In this document: positions 1 through 14,136 of the stretch, in pieces
Position numbering within the stretch: position 1 is the first letter of the stretch
Layout: every line of letters begins with the position of its first letter
IMG/VR virus record: IMGVR_UViG_2537562194_000013
Source: a virus
Lineage: Duplodnaviria > Heunggongvirae > Uroviricota > Caudoviricetes
Reading direction: 5' to 3' (one strand)
DNA length: 22,567 nucleotides
Notes under the pieces: model-generated
Databases searched by the model: none
Told to the model about the DNA's origin: nothing
Seen by the model: the letters and a program-made list of their open reading frames with translations, nothing else
Made by a program: the position numbers and the translations under genes

Positions 1-432
1 GATATCAACGTTATTACCAATTTTTACTCTTGAACCAGGCATGTCACCATCTATCTGTCCAATGGTAGTATTCTGTCGCAAAACCAGATTTTCACCAGCA
101 TCAACAGCAAAATGAACAACAATTCCAGTATGATGGGGAATTGTTAAACCTTTTCCAATATTTGCGCCCAATCCAATTTCGCAACCAAATCTGTTAATTA
201 TATTATTGTTTAACTTTCTGGCTGCTTTCTTATGTAATTTATTGCCATTAATATACATTTCATTAGCCAGTCTCCACCAGAAAAGGAAATTCCGATTGCG
301 CTGCTTCTTCTCTCTTAATAGTCGCCAAACATCCATTTTTTCACGCCTGATGATTTCAGCCATCCAGTAGCTCAATAGAGCTTTTGAATTCCCGAAGATG
401 ACAAAGTGAATAGCTATTAAGTAACATAACAT
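1..432 (-). CDS. Hexapeptide-repeat acetyltransferase (WcaB/CysE-like family), 5' part only; the gene runs off the left edge of the window
   Basis: Minus-strand frame is open from ATG at 432 to position 1, with an in-frame stop just upstream at 460-462. It was not in the supplied ORF track because it has no stop inside the window. Translation begins MLCYLIAIHFVIFGNSKALLSYWMAEII and ends with left-handed beta-helix hexapeptide repeats (RFGCEIGLGANIGKGLTIPHHTGIVVHFAVDAGENLVLRQNTTIGQIDGDMPGSRVKIGNNVDI) typical of serine/polysaccharide O-acetyltransferases. The region is clearly AT-rich compared with the rest of the window. Confidence 0.6.
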   Translation of the reverse strand, partial: MLCYLIAIHFVIFGNSKALLSYWMAEIIRREKMDVWRLLREKKQRNRNFLFWWRLANEMYINGNKLHKKAARKLNNNIINRFGCEIGLGANIGKGLTIPHHTGIVVHFAVDAGENLVLRQNTTIGQIDGDMPGSRVKIGNNVDI

Positions 433-902
433 ATTGCAACTGCCTATATTTTTTGGTTTCTATGGTTATATATTGACATTATAATTAAAACAATAATCAT
501 CAGTGTGTTACTGCGTTCCTGCTAAACTAAATCAACGCACAATGTAAACACAAATGTTAATTTTAAACTGAGCGCTAAAGGGATGTCAATATTGTATTGA
601 TAATGAGTTGCAAGATTGCCAACACTTTCTATATTTTTGGATGTAATAATTTATATTTTATCTATTTAGTGTTTCTTTAGACTTATTAAGGATGTCATTA
701 TTAATTTATGGCTTGCCATTTCTATACATATCTGTTAAAAATTTTGACTTGTTTGTTGAAAATAGATTTAATTGATTGGTTTATTTTTTACATGACGCTC
801 TTTAATATAGCTTCAGGTATATATAAGCACAATGCATTATTTCCAGAGGAAATTAACAAAATTGTTAGCTCTTATTTGTTGAGCTTATAGATATTAATTA
901 AG

Positions 903-921
903 GCCCGATTCCGGGCCTTTC
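903..921. terminator. GC-rich hairpin (GGCCCG-ATTC-CGGGCC) followed by TTT, at the boundary between the AT-rich island and the dar operon leader
   Basis: Perfect 6-bp inverted repeat with a 4-nt loop at 903-918. The flanking T-tract is short, so terminator strength is uncertain. Confidence 0.35.
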
Positions 922-922
922 C

Positions 923-1129
923 TCATTCCGGCTTTTCGGGAAACGTTACTGGAAGGATGGAGGTATCCGTGGATTCGACTTTCTGCGCATAGAGAATCCA
1001 CTCGGTTAATTTTTGTTTACCCTGAACGGAAATAATGCCTAGCCGTAACTGTGAGTCCCAGAGCTGAGTTTTATCCCTGACGAGCTGTAGCAGGCTTTGC
1101 TTTTCTTTTTCCGCTTGTTGTCTTTGCAT
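923..1129 (-). CDS. Possible small protein (68 aa), hypothetical
   Basis: This is the C-terminal 68 codons of the 165-aa track ORF 923..1420, starting at ATG 1129 (MQRQQAEKEKQSLLQLVRDKTQLWDSQLRLGIISVQGKQKLTEWILYAQKVESTD...). The composition is protein-like, unlike the upstream 97 codons, which are antisense to lydA. There is no convincing ribosome-binding site, so this is a weak call. Confidence 0.2.
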   Translation of the reverse strand: MQRQQAEKEKQSLLQLVRDKTQLWDSQLRLGIISVQGKQKLTEWILYAQKVESTDTSILPVTFPEKPE

Positions 1130-1187: not shown

Positions 1188-1517
1188 GTGCTTGACACAC
1201 AGGAATTAGCTCCAGTTGCTATTGCGCTCCTGCTTTCAGTAATTGGTGGGATAGGCACGTTCCTGATGGATGTCCGAGACGGTCGCCAGTCTGGCAATTT
1301 GTTGGGATTGGTTACGGAGATCTTTGTTGCAGTGACAGCTGGTGCGGTGGCGTACCTATTGGGGCAACACGAGGGCTGGGAGTTATCAATTACGTACTTA
1401 ATGGTAACGATAGCCAGCAATAACGGTCATGAGGTGATTTCAGGGATGAAACGAGTGAATATCGATAGCATTCTGAATGTTCTTACAAGTTTGGTGAAAA
1501 AGGGAGGTGGGAAATGA
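1188..1517 (+). CDS. lydA: Holin LydA (P1 dar-operon lysis determinant A)
   Basis: 109 aa, GTG start preceded by AGGAGG. Three hydrophobic helices (LAPVAIALLLSVIGGIGTFLM, LLGLVTEIFVAVTAGAVAYLL, LSITYLMVTIAS) and a charged C-terminal tail, which is holin topology. It is the first gene of an operon whose order matches the P1 lydA-lydB-hdf-darA-ddrA-ddrB arrangement. Confidence 0.7.
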   Translation: MLDTQELAPVAIALLLSVIGGIGTFLMDVRDGRQSGNLLGLVTEIFVAVTAGAVAYLLGQHEGWELSITYLMVTIASNNGHEVISGMKRVNIDSILNVLTSLVKKGGGK

Positions 1518-1957
1518 TTGGCTGGGGTGTATGCGCTCTTGCGTTAGCCTTAGCCGATCGCTATTTGCTAAAACGCAAGGACATCACGCATTTAGAACTT
1601 GGTGATGTGGAAATTAAACCGGGTTTCATCCGGGTGCCGTTCAAATACCGGTCTAAATTCCCGTTTTTGCGCGGCGCAACGGTCAGATATTGGATCCGCG
1701 ATGTTCAGAAGCCAACGACAGTGATTGAAGGCGAACAACGTTGTCTGACGTCGGCTGAACAGGGCGAAAACAGTGAATGGTTGTACATACCCACTGAATA
1801 TATGGGTAAAGGAGAACGGCTGTGGCATTTCAACGTCATGGTTACGCATGGCGACTCGTTCATTAACCCGTTGTATCGGATTTTCCCTGTTACTCAGCAA
1901 ATCCGCAGAAGTTACGTAATAAATCTCGCACAGGATGTGTCAGATGACGAAAAATAA
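1514..1957 (+). CDS. lydB: LydB (holin antagonist in the P1 dar operon)
   Basis: 147 aa. The start ATG overlaps the lydA stop (ATGA at 1514-1517) and follows GGGAGG. It has an N-terminal hydrophobic segment. Identification is by position and size relative to lydA and darA. Confidence 0.6.
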   Translation: MIGWGVCALALALADRYLLKRKDITHLELGDVEIKPGFIRVPFKYRSKFPFLRGATVRYWIRDVQKPTTVIEGEQRCLTSAEQGENSEWLYIPTEYMGKGERLWHFNVMVTHGDSFINPLYRIFPVTQQIRRSYVINLAQDVSDDEK

Positions 1958-8137: not shown

Positions 8138-8164
8138 ATCCCGCCAATCGGCGGGATTTTTTTT
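8138..8164. terminator. Rho-independent terminator between the convergent dar operon and the ssb operon
   Basis: 8-bp GC-rich stem (ATCCCGCC / GGCGGGAT), 4-nt loop, then a run of 7 T. It follows the stop at 8133 on the plus strand and overlaps the stop of the minus-strand gene at 8163. Confidence 0.85.
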
Positions 8165-8951
8165 AATCGCTTTCCACTTCTTCCGTGGTGTTTTCTTGCA
8201 GTTCTGTTAATGCAGCACGACATAGGTTCCGGGCATTGGATATAGCCACACTTTTGACTTCATCCGTCATCGTGCAGGTAATGTACTGATCGAGTTCTTC
8301 AGCGCGGATGATGCTTTTGCCAATCAGAAACTGTATTTGCCAGAGCAGATCGGCATCCATAATCAGAATTTCTGCCGGGCCTTCAGGGCCAGCCGGGAAG
8401 GAAACATAAGACTGTTTGCCCAGGCCGATAACTCGACAACTTGCTTCAAGAATTGCGCGCTTGAGGTCTGACTTTGTAACTGAAACAGGTTGATTTTCAC
8501 CTGCGATTACGCCGTTGACATGGATGTGGAAGGGCATGTAGCTTGAAATTCGCTCTACTTTCCATACGCCAGCAAGCGATCCTTCATGCAGCACAATGGG
8601 GGTAACCGCGAGTTTCATCTCACCATATAACTGCTGGCAGATAACTGGATTACTGAATACATCCAGAGGTTCACACTCAAACAGCGGCGCAATCTGCATG
8701 AGGTCCATCATGGTCATACCAGGGGTACGAGCAGTAATGAATCTGCGCATTCCAGTATCCATTGTGCGCCAGATAGCTACACCATGCTTTTTGCTCACTT
8801 CTTCAGTAAAGCCAAGGTGGCACATGATGGTTTTTTCGATAGCCAGATCAGAGATCGAAACCTTTTCGCCAGGCACACCATCATTATTGATGGTCACTTC
8901 GACACTCTGACCATTACGCAGGCGGTATTGAATTGCTTTAGTATTTTCCAC
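8163..8951 (-). CDS. Hypothetical protein (262 aa), last gene of the ssb operon
   Basis: GTG start at 8951 with GGAG 9 nt upstream; it begins 6 nt after the upstream gene's stop. Acidic C-terminus (ELQENTTEEVESD). No recognisable motif. I am not aware of an intact counterpart in P1, which as I recall carries an IS1 insertion around this position. Confidence 0.65.
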   Translation of the reverse strand: MENTKAIQYRLRNGQSVEVTINNDGVPGEKVSISDLAIEKTIMCHLGFTEEVSKKHGVAIWRTMDTGMRRFITARTPGMTMMDLMQIAPLFECEPLDVFSNPVICQQLYGEMKLAVTPIVLHEGSLAGVWKVERISSYMPFHIHVNGVIAGENQPVSVTKSDLKRAILEASCRVIGLGKQSYVSFPAGPEGPAEILIMDADLLWQIQFLIGKSIIRAEELDQYITCTMTDEVKSVAISNARNLCRAALTELQENTTEEVESD

Positions 8952-8957
8952 GTTAAA

Positions 8958-9635
8958 TCACTCCACTACAAACCAGTCACATGCCAGTAAGTCGCCTACA
9001 GAAGGAACCCACGGAACAACTACACCTTGTGCATTTTTTAAGGCGAAATAAGCACCATACGGAACGAGGTCGCCGGGGAAATATCCCTTAATGGCTTCCA
9101 TTCGTGCCGGGTACTGTCCTTCAGGAACCAGCCAGCAGAATTGGTTTTCGCCGTTCCACCCGCGTCGGGCAACTTTCTTGCCATCCTTCAGCCACATCAG
9201 CGCGTCAGAAAAGTCGGCTGCTTCAAGGTCGATTTCTTCTTGTAGAGTAGCGATACCGCCAGCAGAAATAGTTACGTCCCTGGCTGTAATGAATGTCACC
9301 CCATTGTGACCTTCAATGCTGAGCGATACCCCATTTTCGAAGAAGTCGTTAGTCCGACTAAAGCCTTCTTCAAATGTTTTTTCTGGTGAATAGGACAGAG
9401 ATCCGTCCTCATAAGCGACCAGATATCCGCCAATTTCTGGTCGGTGTTTTTGCAAAAATATTTTATCAACATGGACTTTTACCCCTTCTGGCTCAACGAC
9501 TTCGATGTTGCAAAAAAGGACCACATCCATTAGGGCGATAATTTCGATATCTTTGATTTTTGAGGCGCGAACTGTTTTATGGCTTTTGTATTTTGGAAGT
9601 GCCGTCAAAAGCTCTTTCGTTGTCATGTTATTCAT
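8958..9635 (-). CDS. Two-domain protein with a C-terminal DUF2829 (Tad2-like) domain
   Basis: I prefer ATG 9635 (MNNMTTKELL...), which has an AGAGGA ribosome-binding site, over the track start at 9803. The C-terminal ~80 aa (FSDALMWLKDGKKVARRGWNGENQFCWL...VVVPWVPSVGDLLACDWFVVE) fits the DUF2829 signature as I recall it: ALK-GKK-RR-GWNG, then PW-PS--DLLA-DW. The N-terminal ~140 aa is unrecognised. Confidence 0.7.
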   Translation of the reverse strand: MNNMTTKELLTALPKYKSHKTVRASKIKDIEIIALMDVVLFCNIEVVEPEGVKVHVDKIFLQKHRPEIGGYLVAYEDGSLSYSPEKTFEEGFSRTNDFFENGVSLSIEGHNGVTFITARDVTISAGGIATLQEEIDLEAADFSDALMWLKDGKKVARRGWNGENQFCWLVPEGQYPARMEAIKGYFPGDLVPYGAYFALKNAQGVVVPWVPSVGDLLACDWFVVE

Positions 9636-9832
9636 AGTCTTTCCTCTGCTTAAAACCTGATGTATTGCGCCTTCAGGTGGGTCAGGAATGTTTTCCCACC
9701 AGCGAACGCAATATCTCGGGGTGTTCTTTTCGTGAAAAGCGCGTGCCATTGCCAACTTTGGCGTTTGTTTGCGAGTTCGTGCTTTTGTCGGCGTCTGGAC
9801 CACCGCTTTTCTTTCAGTCGTTTTTTACACAT

Positions 9833-10357: not shown

Positions 10358-10490
10358 AATGTATATCTTTGAAACGTAGCTAACAAGTGATTTGCATTAT
10401 CCTGTGCCTTCTAAAGGGATCGAGTCAGTCGGTATTGGCTGTGAATGGGTGTTTGTCCTGGAGCGTAAAAAATTCGCTTATGAGGTCTTT

Positions 10491-11048
10491 ATGAAGGGAA
10501 AAACAGCCGCAGGAGGCGGTGCAATTTGCGCTATCGCGGTGATGATTACCATCGTGATGGGTAATGGCAATGTGCGAACCAACCAGGCGGGGCTTGAGCT
10601 GATTGGTAACGCTGAAGGTTGCCGACGTGATCCATACATGTGCCCGGCGGGGGTATGGACTGACGGGATTGGTAATACACACGGGGTAACGCCGGGTGTG
10701 CGAAAAACCGACCAGCAAATCGCCGCTGATTGGGAAAAGAATATCCTGATCGCTGAACGCTGTATTAATCAGCACTTCCGGGGCAAAGACATGCCCGATA
10801 ATGCCTTCAGTGCAATGACAAGCGCGGCATTCAATATGGGATGCAATAGCTTACGGACCTACTACAGCAAAGCGCGAGGCATGCGAGTAGAAACGTCCAT
10901 CCACAAGTGGGCGCAGAAAGGGGAGTGGGTGAATATGTGTAACCATCTCCCTGATTTCGTGAACAGTAACGGCGTGCCCCTGCGAGGTTTAAAGATTCGC
11001 CGTGAAAAAGAACGCCAGCTTTGCCTGACGGGGCTGGTCAATGAATAA
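10491..11048 (+). CDS. lyz: SAR endolysin (phage lysozyme, T4-lysozyme-like fold) of the P1 Lyz type
   Basis: 185 aa from ATG 10491, with GAGG upstream; the track ORF starts earlier at 10392. N-terminal Gly/Ala-rich signal-arrest-release segment (GGGAICAIAVMITIVMGNGN), then a catalytic region with Glu, Asp and Thr in the expected arrangement (NAEGCRRDPY...GVWTDGIGNTHG). Confidence 0.92.
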   Translation: MKGKTAAGGGAICAIAVMITIVMGNGNVRTNQAGLELIGNAEGCRRDPYMCPAGVWTDGIGNTHGVTPGVRKTDQQIAADWEKNILIAERCINQHFRGKDMPDNAFSAMTSAAFNMGCNSLRTYYSKARGMRVETSIHKWAQKGEWVNMCNHLPDFVNSNGVPLRGLKIRREKERQLCLTGLVNE

Positions 11049-11295
11049 ACTCCGGCAGCTCCGCCGACTTTCGACAATGAAGTTATCGCTGGCGGCGATA
11101 GTTTTCGACTCGATTTTCATGGCGGTATATGTGCTCAATGAGACGTGGCCACTGGAACCGCTATTGTATGCTGGGCTTCGGCTGTGCCTGACATTTTTGA
11201 GCATGGCTGCAAGATTGATGCAGCAGAAAGAAACCGCTTCAGATTGTCCACGCCGCGCGGTGCGCAAATATATGGCACGCAGGCGAAGGCGATAA
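11041..11295 (+). CDS. Small membrane protein with two hydrophobic helices and an Arg-rich C-terminus; candidate lysis accessory protein
   Basis: 84 aa. ATG 11041 overlaps the last 8 nt of lyz. Hydrophobic segments LSLAAIVFDSIFMAVYVL and LLYAGLRLCLTFLSMAARL, tail KYMARRRRR. The ribosome-binding site is weak, so this could be a chance ORF. Confidence 0.4.
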   Translation: MNKLRQLRRLSTMKLSLAAIVFDSIFMAVYVLNETWPLEPLLYAGLRLCLTFLSMAARLMQQKETASDCPRRAVRKYMARRRRR

Positions 11296-11306
11296 TAGTT
11301 AACGAG

Positions 11307-11335
11307 AACCCCGGCATCCGCCGGGGTTATTTTTG
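11307..11335 (+). terminator. Rho-independent terminator after the lyz transcription unit
   Basis: 8-bp stem AACCCCGG / CCGGGGTT, 6-nt loop, then ATTTTTGG. Confidence 0.7.
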
Positions 11336-11339
11336 GTGG

Positions 11340-14136
<2,797 letters not shown>

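Follow-up and report, generated by a model that had tools for sequence, protein, structure and literature searches.

Bednarek et al. asked in 2022 why the SAR endolysin of phage P1 seems to have no adjacent pinholin (PMC9025707). The same question is raised by the DNA analyzed here, a stretch of 22,567 nt referred to below as the window, in which the SAR endolysin gene lyz is followed by a small overlapping ORF that encodes two putative membrane helices and a basic tail. An earlier note on this DNA had described this arrangement from the letters alone and had placed the recognizable holin gene, lydA, about 9 kb away in the dar operon; both observations hold, with lydA lying upstream of lyz and ahead of darA. 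The small ORF is lydD, and the region is very probably the late lyz-lydD lysis operon of a P1-type phage, in which LydD acts as a pinholin beside LydA and LydB. The pinholin role of lydD is already known, the gene being annotated in the P1 record and characterized in 2022, and nothing new on P1 is added in this respect. The minor additions beyond the literature are the probable link between LydD and the family DUF7940, the case against the nested frame lydE, and the position of the operon terminator.

By megablast, the window falls in the P1 group (Punavirus), with 98-99% DNA identity to P1-like phages and the phage vB_EcoM-Ro157c2YLVW as the best overall match, and it is accordingly classified from these matches as a P1-like phage or plasmid-prophage. 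No match to Rfam was found anywhere in the window. As judged from the ORF list and the sequence, lyz and lydD lie on the same strand and share 8 nt, ATGAATAA. The genes lydA and lydB, with 99.4% DNA identity to their P1 counterparts, match PHROG 1527 holin (E 4e-49) and PHROG 1898 lysis determining protein (E 1e-84), respectively. The coordinates of all of these features are collected in Table 1.

Table 1. Features of the lyz-lydD operon and of the unlinked lydA and lydB genes, with positions in the window
Feature	Position	Strand	Basis or remark
lydA (holin, 1188-1517) and lydB (antiholin, 1514-1957), head of the dar operon	1188..1957	+	PHROG matches
Late promoter LPlyz (Lpa-dependent) of the lyz-lydD operon	10385..10403	+	AAGTGATTTGCATTATCCT, identical to the P1 AF234172 feature
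lyz, SAR endolysin, 185 aa	10491..11048	+	Lyz 100% identical to P1; Pfam and PHROG matches
Putative SAR domain of Lyz, residues ~5-27, including Cys13	10503..10571	+	Hydropathy; literature on P1 Lyz
lydD, pinholin, 84 aa	11041..11295	+	Identity to P1/P7, PHROG 21930, selection, PMC9025707
Predicted LydD transmembrane helix 1, residues ~14-32, with invariant Asp23	11080..11136	+	Hydropathy, AlphaFold model, alignment
lydE ORF, 71 codons, GTG start, -1 frame relative to lydD	11145..11360	+	Most likely no functional gene
Predicted LydD transmembrane helix 2, residues ~40-58	11158..11214	+	Hydropathy, AlphaFold model, alignment
Putative basic cytoplasmic tail of LydD, residues 60-84	11218..11292	+	Charge +8; P1-clade-specific
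Intrinsic terminator of the lyz-lydD operon, within the lydE ORF	11307..11336	+	Stem and T-run, fold energy

The lyz reading frame has 185 codons; its ATG is internal to a longer ORF and its stop codon is at 11046-11048. The product is 100% identical to the Lyz proteins of both P1 and P7 and matches Pfam Phage_lysozyme (E 2e-22) and PHROG 7 endolysin (E 7e-69). Its N-terminus, MKGKTAAGGGAICAIAVMITIVMGNGN, is weakly hydrophobic and rich in Gly and Ala (five of each in residues 6-27), with the Kyte-Doolittle maximum at residues 7-23, and the translation contains Cys13, Glu42, Cys44, and Cys51. The protein therefore has the three traits of a SAR endolysin, namely the Gly/Ala-rich N-terminus, a T4-type lysozyme domain, and Cys13 together with the Cys44/Cys51 caging pair; the N-terminus and the residues Cys13, Glu42, Cys44, and Cys51 can be recognized as the signature of the P1 SAR endolysin. 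According to Xu et al. (2004, 2005), as these papers are cited in PMC9025707, P1 Lyz is exported by Sec, remains tethered to the membrane, and is activated by disulfide isomerization after its release.

LydD is 84 aa long and identical over its whole length to LydD of P1 and P7 (GenBank AAQ13988.1 and AAQ07492.1). It matches PHROG 21930 "holin" over its full length (E 9e-59), and the GenBank records of P1 and P7 name the two genes lyz and lydD, the latter as a "putative holin"; the ORF is thus not the unannotated one that the earlier note had taken it for. The annotation in P1 dates from 2004. Hydropathy locates two hydrophobic segments at about residues 13-33 and 40-57. The first 12 residues include four positive charges, and the tail (residues 60-84) has a net charge of +8 and ends in RRRRR. 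The AlphaFold model is a two-helix hairpin (helices 3-32 and 40-83) of low confidence (mean pLDDT 68.7, pTM 0.33). With hydropathy, this model agrees with the holin-like topology previously proposed from the two hydrophobic segments and the Arg-rich C-terminus. Both termini are probably cytoplasmic, as suggested by the basic ends, the short polar loop, and the hydropathy profile. LydD therefore combines the structural traits of a pinholin: it is small, has two hydrophobic helices and a charged C-terminal tail, and its gene adjoins that of a SAR endolysin. A profile search of the PDB sequences gave nothing at E 10 or better, no Pfam holin family matched at E 1 or better, and NCBIfam has no model for the protein.

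Many spurious ORFs of similar size occur in the window, and the length of lydD is not significant by itself; for this reason, the case against a chance ORF rests on evolution. An intact 84-codon orthologue occupies the same place in divergent P1-type plasmid-prophages of Salmonella, Klebsiella, and other Enterobacteriaceae, with proteins 75-83% identical to LydD and DNA only 68-73% identical to lydD. The pairwise dN/dS against these orthologues is 0.06-0.15, and in the comparison with one of them (L003), 42 of the 72 differences fall at third codon positions. Further support came from 84 close relatives, whose 330 nt compared comprise 48 different DNA sequences: all have an intact ORF of 82-84 aa, just nine protein variants exist among them, and nearly all of these variants differ in the tail alone. 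Outside the overlap with lyz, 33 of 36 SNP alleles are synonymous in the lydD frame. These alleles comprise 12 in the part free of both overlaps (10 synonymous, two non-synonymous, no stop) and 24 in the overlap with lydE (23 synonymous, one non-synonymous, no stop). The tail is the most variable part (dN/dS 0.17-0.36), with three to five terminal Arg residues among natural variants. Codons 1-12 are under purifying selection (dN/dS 0.04-0.12), and because this N-terminal extension is constrained, Met1 is a real start. Conservation across P1-like genomes, which had been proposed as a check, is therefore found in close and divergent relatives alike, and the chance-ORF reading can be regarded as refuted by the strong purifying selection in the lydD frame.

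The ribosome-binding site of lydD is weak, as the earlier note had it (duplex -5.7 kcal/mol), and comparable to that of lyz (-6.3 kcal/mol). The weakness is understandable because lydD overlaps the lyz stop codon, and translation of lydD is probably coupled to that of lyz given the 8-nt overlap of the two genes. Start/stop overlaps of 1-13 nt with the lysozyme gene are found in the P1-type relatives and in the distant members that adjoin a lysozyme gene (L011-L015); their occurrence in every lysozyme-adjacent relative examined points to translational coupling. Upstream, LPlyz was placed in the window by direct sequence comparison with P1, with a 1-nt offset, and its function is that given by the P1 annotation. 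Downstream, a hairpin (11307-11328) followed by a T-run begins 12 nt past the lydD stop codon. Its stem has nine pairs, seven of them G-C, and the fold energy is -21 kcal/mol (z -2.98); across the 84 relatives, the stem is near-invariant and the loop variable. From the P1 annotation and the sequence, transcription would start at the Lpa-dependent promoter and end at this hairpin, just past lydD.

The nested ORF lydE, which overlaps the 3' part of lydD, is called a "putative antiholin" in P1 and is not annotated in P7. Several stops interrupt its frame in each of the divergent relatives; the frame is also shortened in P7 and truncated in 19 of the 84 close relatives. In the overlap with lydD, the lydE frame is without coding selection, only one of 23 SNP alleles being synonymous (21 non-synonymous, one stop). 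LydE has no PHROG match and no hydrophobic or membrane segment by hydropathy, and its last 18 codons are a translation of the operon terminator. Removal of lydE gave no phenotype (PMC9025707). From the sequence and the published lack of phenotype, lydE is most likely a non-functional overprinted frame, and the "putative antiholin" should probably go from P1-type annotations. A programmed -1 frameshift from lydD into lydE at the T5 run (11193-11197), suggested by the fused variants P0005, P0006, and P0008, was also considered. It was rejected, because the fusions occur at three different places, each of them rare, and the lydE frame is without coding selection; the fused variants are best read as mutations or sequencing errors.

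The function of LydD has been studied directly in P1, and because the LydD and Lyz proteins are identical, the published results transfer to the window. Bednarek et al. reported that lysis was faster and more complete with a plasmid carrying both lyz and lydD than with one carrying just lyz, with no effect of lydE, and that induction of LydD kills cells (PMC9025707). A P1 lydA lydC double mutant still formed plaques but a lydA lydD double mutant did not, so that LydD is sufficient for plaque formation without LydA; in liquid culture, lydD mutants lysed late (PMC9025707). When paired with lambda R, a soluble endolysin, LydD gave no lysis, whether the two were supplied from separate plasmids or R replaced lyz in the phage (P1 lyz::R), although colony-forming units fell, and the lysis morphology of wild-type P1, which is of the pinholin/SAR type, became canonical in a lydC lydD mutant (PMC9025707). 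From these data, the authors concluded that LydD is a pinholin (PMC9025707), and lydD is listed as such in a later paper. The guess that the ORF might be a pinholin was therefore correct, and the sequence-only logic behind it, that a SAR endolysin expects an adjacent pinholin, pointed to a gene whose role was demonstrated only in 2022. A genome-wide CRISPRi screen found lydD and lydE non-essential and lyz essential, with an efficiency of plating near 1 upon lydD knockdown (PMC10695390). A point against the pinholin reading is that LydD is dispensable: without it, lysis in liquid culture is only late. A second is that LydD is unable to bring about lysis of E. coli in liquid once both lydA and lydC have been removed, a result that the authors called "surprising" (PMC9025707).

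Several other explanations of the locus were weighed against this one. The probability that lydD is a chance frame, or that lydD and lydE form a nested spanin pair of the Rz/Rz1 type, is close to nil: the weak ribosome-binding site and the frequency of spurious ORFs of similar length in the window would fit the former, and the nested out-of-frame geometry recalls the latter, but lydD is under strong selection in its own frame and lydE lacks conservation. LydE has neither a lipobox (AIVC) nor a signal-peptide n-region, and the P1 spanins have been assigned to ppfA/mlp, in a different operon (PMC9025707). The nested pair was rejected on these grounds and on the structure of LydD itself, which has two membrane helices and a short loop. 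A dual start has also been considered, by which the 84-aa form from Met1, with its basic N-terminus, would be an antiholin and a 72-aa form from Met13 the active pinholin, like S71/S68 of phage 21 and S107/S105 of lambda. Met13 is indeed invariant in the P1-type clade (75-100% protein identity), one database entry (P0006) is called from it, and the 12-residue extension carries four positive charges, the addition of charges to the N-terminus of S21 68 being known to make it an inhibitor (PMC9025707). Nevertheless, this arrangement is unlikely, as no Shine-Dalgarno match precedes Met13 (duplex +0.4 kcal/mol) and four of the seven more distant relatives have Leu, Ile, or Val at position 13 (P0016 and P0017 have Met). 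Furthermore, the distant relatives with an N-terminal extension retain a basic, Trp-rich one, and the purifying selection on codons 1-12 implies that the long form is made.

A role as a canonical large-hole holin, or as part of such a holin, in place of the pinholin role is quite improbable for LydD. The databases label it just "holin", some core DUF7940 cassettes have a non-SAR enzyme as their sole endolysin (an M15 peptidase in L100, soluble lysozymes in L105 and L107), and P1 lyz::R without lydA still plaqued on E. cloacae (PMC9025707), so that LydC and/or LydD may pass a soluble endolysin under some conditions. On the other hand, LydD did not lyse cells with lambda R, whether from two plasmids or in liquid infection by P1 lyz::R without lydA, and the pinholin-type morphology was lost in the lydC lydD mutant (PMC9025707); the non-SAR cassettes also hold another small membrane protein, possibly the real holin. 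The idea that LydD is mainly a regulator of LydA/LydB, either a timing modulator or an antiholin, and itself no membrane permeabilizer, is very improbable. Its phenotype in liquid culture is accessory, and its contribution varies with host and growth conditions (PMC9025707), as might be expected of a regulator, yet the loss of an antiholin should advance lysis and lydD mutants were delayed. Moreover, LydD with Lyz and no other P1 protein accelerated lysis, and LydD alone was lethal (PMC9025707).

The pinholin reading of LydD suggests the following course of events. LydD would sit in the inner membrane as a hairpin of two helices, its N- and C-termini facing the cytoplasm, as its charge distribution and hydropathy indicate. 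Lyz, according to the literature on the identical P1 protein, is exported by Sec and held in the inner membrane in its inactive form by the SAR helix. As LydD accumulates, it would produce small lethal lesions and the membrane potential would collapse, the depolarization and the pore size being deduced from the phenotype. Depolarization would then free the SAR helix of Lyz, and Cys13 would reshuffle the Cys44-Cys51 disulfide, so that the enzyme becomes active along the whole cell wall. LydD shares the labor with the unlinked LydA/LydB, as an accessory in shaken liquid culture and as a sufficient agent on plates.

The relatives of LydD are few. An exhaustive HMMER search gave only 12 representatives at E 0.001 or better, and two long proteins (P0010 and P0014), each with 7-8 short matched stretches, were set aside as repetitive membrane-segment matches. 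Against Pfam DUF7940 (PF25612), LydD scores 22.8 bits (E 1.4e-4), where the gathering threshold is 27 bits. A protein 52% identical to LydD (P0009) reaches 49.8 bits; it comes from a P1-like element that is further removed and likewise has the order ssb / lysozyme / small gene. At 31-46% identity, relatives reach 36-48 bits. By these profile scores, LydD probably belongs to a divergent branch of DUF7940, linked via P0009. A search of viral contigs with another relative (P0011) found nothing. In the second helix, Pro40, Tyr43, Arg47, Thr51, Met55, and Arg58 are invariant; across the aligned set as a whole, the invariant positions also include Ala19, Asp23, Glu34, Leu50, and Ala57. They amount to an acidic residue in helix 1 and an i, i+4 polar stripe along helix 2. 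The tails of the distant relatives are short and acidic, the Arg-rich tail being found in the P1 clade only.

In every relative of the LydD branch that was examined, the gene comes directly after one for a PF00959 lysozyme with a SAR-like N-terminus, and the two genes overlap; in the non-P1 phages of this branch, a gene for an Rz-like spanin comes next. The core DUF7940 proteins score 70-78 bits, start with "MKLIPNWKK...", and occur in the lysis cassettes of unrelated phages. Their neighbors are SAR lysozymes and also soluble M15 peptidases and soluble lysozymes; because core members adjoin non-SAR endolysins too, the pinholin label cannot be extended to all of DUF7940. In one case, a single ORF joins the core protein to a SAR lysozyme. 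Both PHROG families related to LydD (21930 and 1356) are already called "holin", and a literature search found no mention of Pfam DUF7940 (PF25612).

These family data invite a broader proposal, which must be regarded as tentative and, taken as a whole, rather doubtful: LydD would be the first experimentally characterized member of DUF7940, and the family a separate lineage of hole formers, with a mechanism unlike that of S21 68, with timing set by the Arg tail, and with endolysins specific to each branch. If so, LydD would be a stable hairpin with both ends cytoplasmic, and helix 1 would remain in the membrane. Its function would depend on the intramembrane Asp23 and on the polar stripe of helix 2, Tyr43-Arg47-Thr51-Ser54-Arg58. 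The Arg tail of the P1 clade, with its three to five Arg residues in nature, would serve as a timing dial, and different branches of DUF7940 would serve either SAR or soluble endolysins. Two parts of this proposal can also be considered separately. The conserved Asp23 and the face formed by Tyr43, Arg47, Thr51, Ser54, and Arg58 may contribute to helix packing or face the lumen, and the Arg tail, specific to P1-type proteins, may tune the timing of lysis. It is the pore mechanism of LydD that is of remaining interest, given that the protein has conserved Asp and Arg residues within the membrane, a strongly basic N-terminus, and no glycine zipper.

The closest functional parallel is the pinholin S21 68 of the lambdoid phage 21, which, together with its antiholin S21 71, is paired with the SAR endolysin R21. 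Like LydD, S21 68 is a small two-helix protein of the inner membrane with a charged C-terminus, encoded beside a SAR endolysin; S21 68 also supports SAR and not soluble endolysins and is lethal alone, which places both proteins in the same functional class (PMC9025707). The gene order is reversed, lydD coming after the endolysin gene, and four positive charges precede helix 1 in LydD as opposed to one in S21 68, whose weakly charged N-terminus lets helix 1 exit the membrane. The very basic N-terminus and the absence of a glycine zipper, which set LydD apart from S21 68, were also pointed out in PMC9025707; helix 2 of LydD, PLLYAGLRLCLTFLSMAAR, has no GxxxG or GxxxSxxxG motif. Because of the four charges before helix 1 and the missing zipper, the activation pathway of phage 21 cannot be assumed for LydD. 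BLASTP found no alignment between LydD and S21 71/68 at E 100, and hhalign gave a probability of 0.3%, the S21 71 query matching the phage 21 record at 100% identity. Judged by these comparisons, LydD is to be seen as a functional analogue of the phage 21 pinholin and not as its homologue.

LydA and LydC of P1 (PHROG 1527) are, like LydD, small membrane lysis proteins that cooperate with Lyz (PMC9025707). LydD and LydA are unrelated in sequence (hhalign probability 0.1%), and LydA supports the soluble lambda R endolysin, which is canonical holin behavior, whereas LydD does not (PMC9025707). With P1 and P7, the locus of the window shares the LydD protein, the gene order (convergent with pro; ssb lies upstream, on the opposite strand), the 8 nt common to lyz and lydD, the sequence of the late promoter, and the terminator position. 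The element differs from P1 elsewhere, having no lydC upstream of lydA and a different isaA/IS1 region; there is no difference in the lydD gene itself. The members of DUF7940 / PHROG 1356 "holin" resemble LydD in length, in the two-helix layout, in the basic, Trp-rich N-terminus, and in the conserved Asp, Glu, Pro, Tyr, Arg, Thr, and Arg positions; their genes likewise adjoin an endolysin gene, usually with a start/stop overlap, and spanin genes often come next. LydD differs from them in falling below the Pfam threshold and in its Arg-rich tail, confined to the P1 clade, and the core members often accompany non-SAR endolysins. The experiments on P1 provide a functional anchor for DUF7940, which Pfam lists as being of "unknown function".

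The lydE frame, an ORF nested in another frame within the 3' part of the pinholin gene lydD, is probably not a gene. Coding selection is absent from this frame, many relatives carry a truncated or broken lydE ORF, and the 3' end of lydE is what the terminator hairpin of the lyz-lydD pair yields when it is translated. The databases also hold rare LydD-like variants (P0005, P0006 and P0008) in which an N-terminal LydD part is joined to the lydE frame; programmed frameshifting was rejected for these proteins, which are taken as frameshift mutations or sequencing errors.

The arginine tail of LydD varies in length among natural P1-like elements, either by conversion of the last codon from CGA to TGA or by loss of one AGGCGA repeat, and Lys or Ser stands within the terminal run in some rare cases. 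This variation in Arg number may tune the timing of lysis.

Features of the window and of loci encoding DUF7940 proteins
Feature	Location	Strand	Remarks
LydD-lydE frame junctions	window 11190-11240		three different points, one being the T5 run 11193-11197
lydE	window 11145-11360	+	'putative antiholin' in P1 annotation; coding selection absent
LydD C-terminal Arg run	window 11278-11295		3 to 5 Arg
Two ORFs (262 and 281 aa)	window 8163-9803	-	PHROG 2326 and 872, unknown function
Core Pfam DUF7940 proteins	L100, L102, L103, L105, L107, L108, L112; match ~1501-1725 in each		70-78 bits
DUF7940 two-helix domain and SAR-type lysozyme, one ORF	L104 1501-2226		34.6 bits DUF7940, 116.7 bits Phage_lysozyme (Pfam)

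The core DUF7940 proteins, which begin with MKLIPNWKK, come from unrelated phages, where they are encoded as part of complete lysis cassettes. Their genes adjoin endolysins that are soluble M15-peptidases or lysozymes, and also SAR lysozymes, and often lie near spanin genes and a gene for another small membrane protein. The Pfam entry for the family still reads 'unknown function'. The single ORF of L104 may represent a holin-endolysin fusion that exists in nature, or else an artefact of assembly.

Upstream of lydA, window positions 1-1127 are not the lydC-cin region of P1 and match phages vB_EcoM-Ro157c2YLVW and JL22, where the corresponding DNA is annotated with serine acetyltransferase and tail-fibre assembly genes. 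Because tblastn with P1 LydC reached only the paralogue lydA, the element appears to be without lydC, at least inside the window.

On the 3' side of lydD, the divergent P1-like plasmid-prophages (L003-L011) carry in place of pro a ProQ/FinO-domain gene convergent with lydD, followed by a repL-like gene. The 3' ends of lydD and the ProQ/FinO-domain gene overlap by 23 nt in L003-L010, and space for lydE is lacking in L003-L011. In the window, the interval between ssb and the dar operon lacks IS1: the site taken there by the 262-aa and 281-aa ORFs is occupied in P1 by isaA-IS1-isaB.
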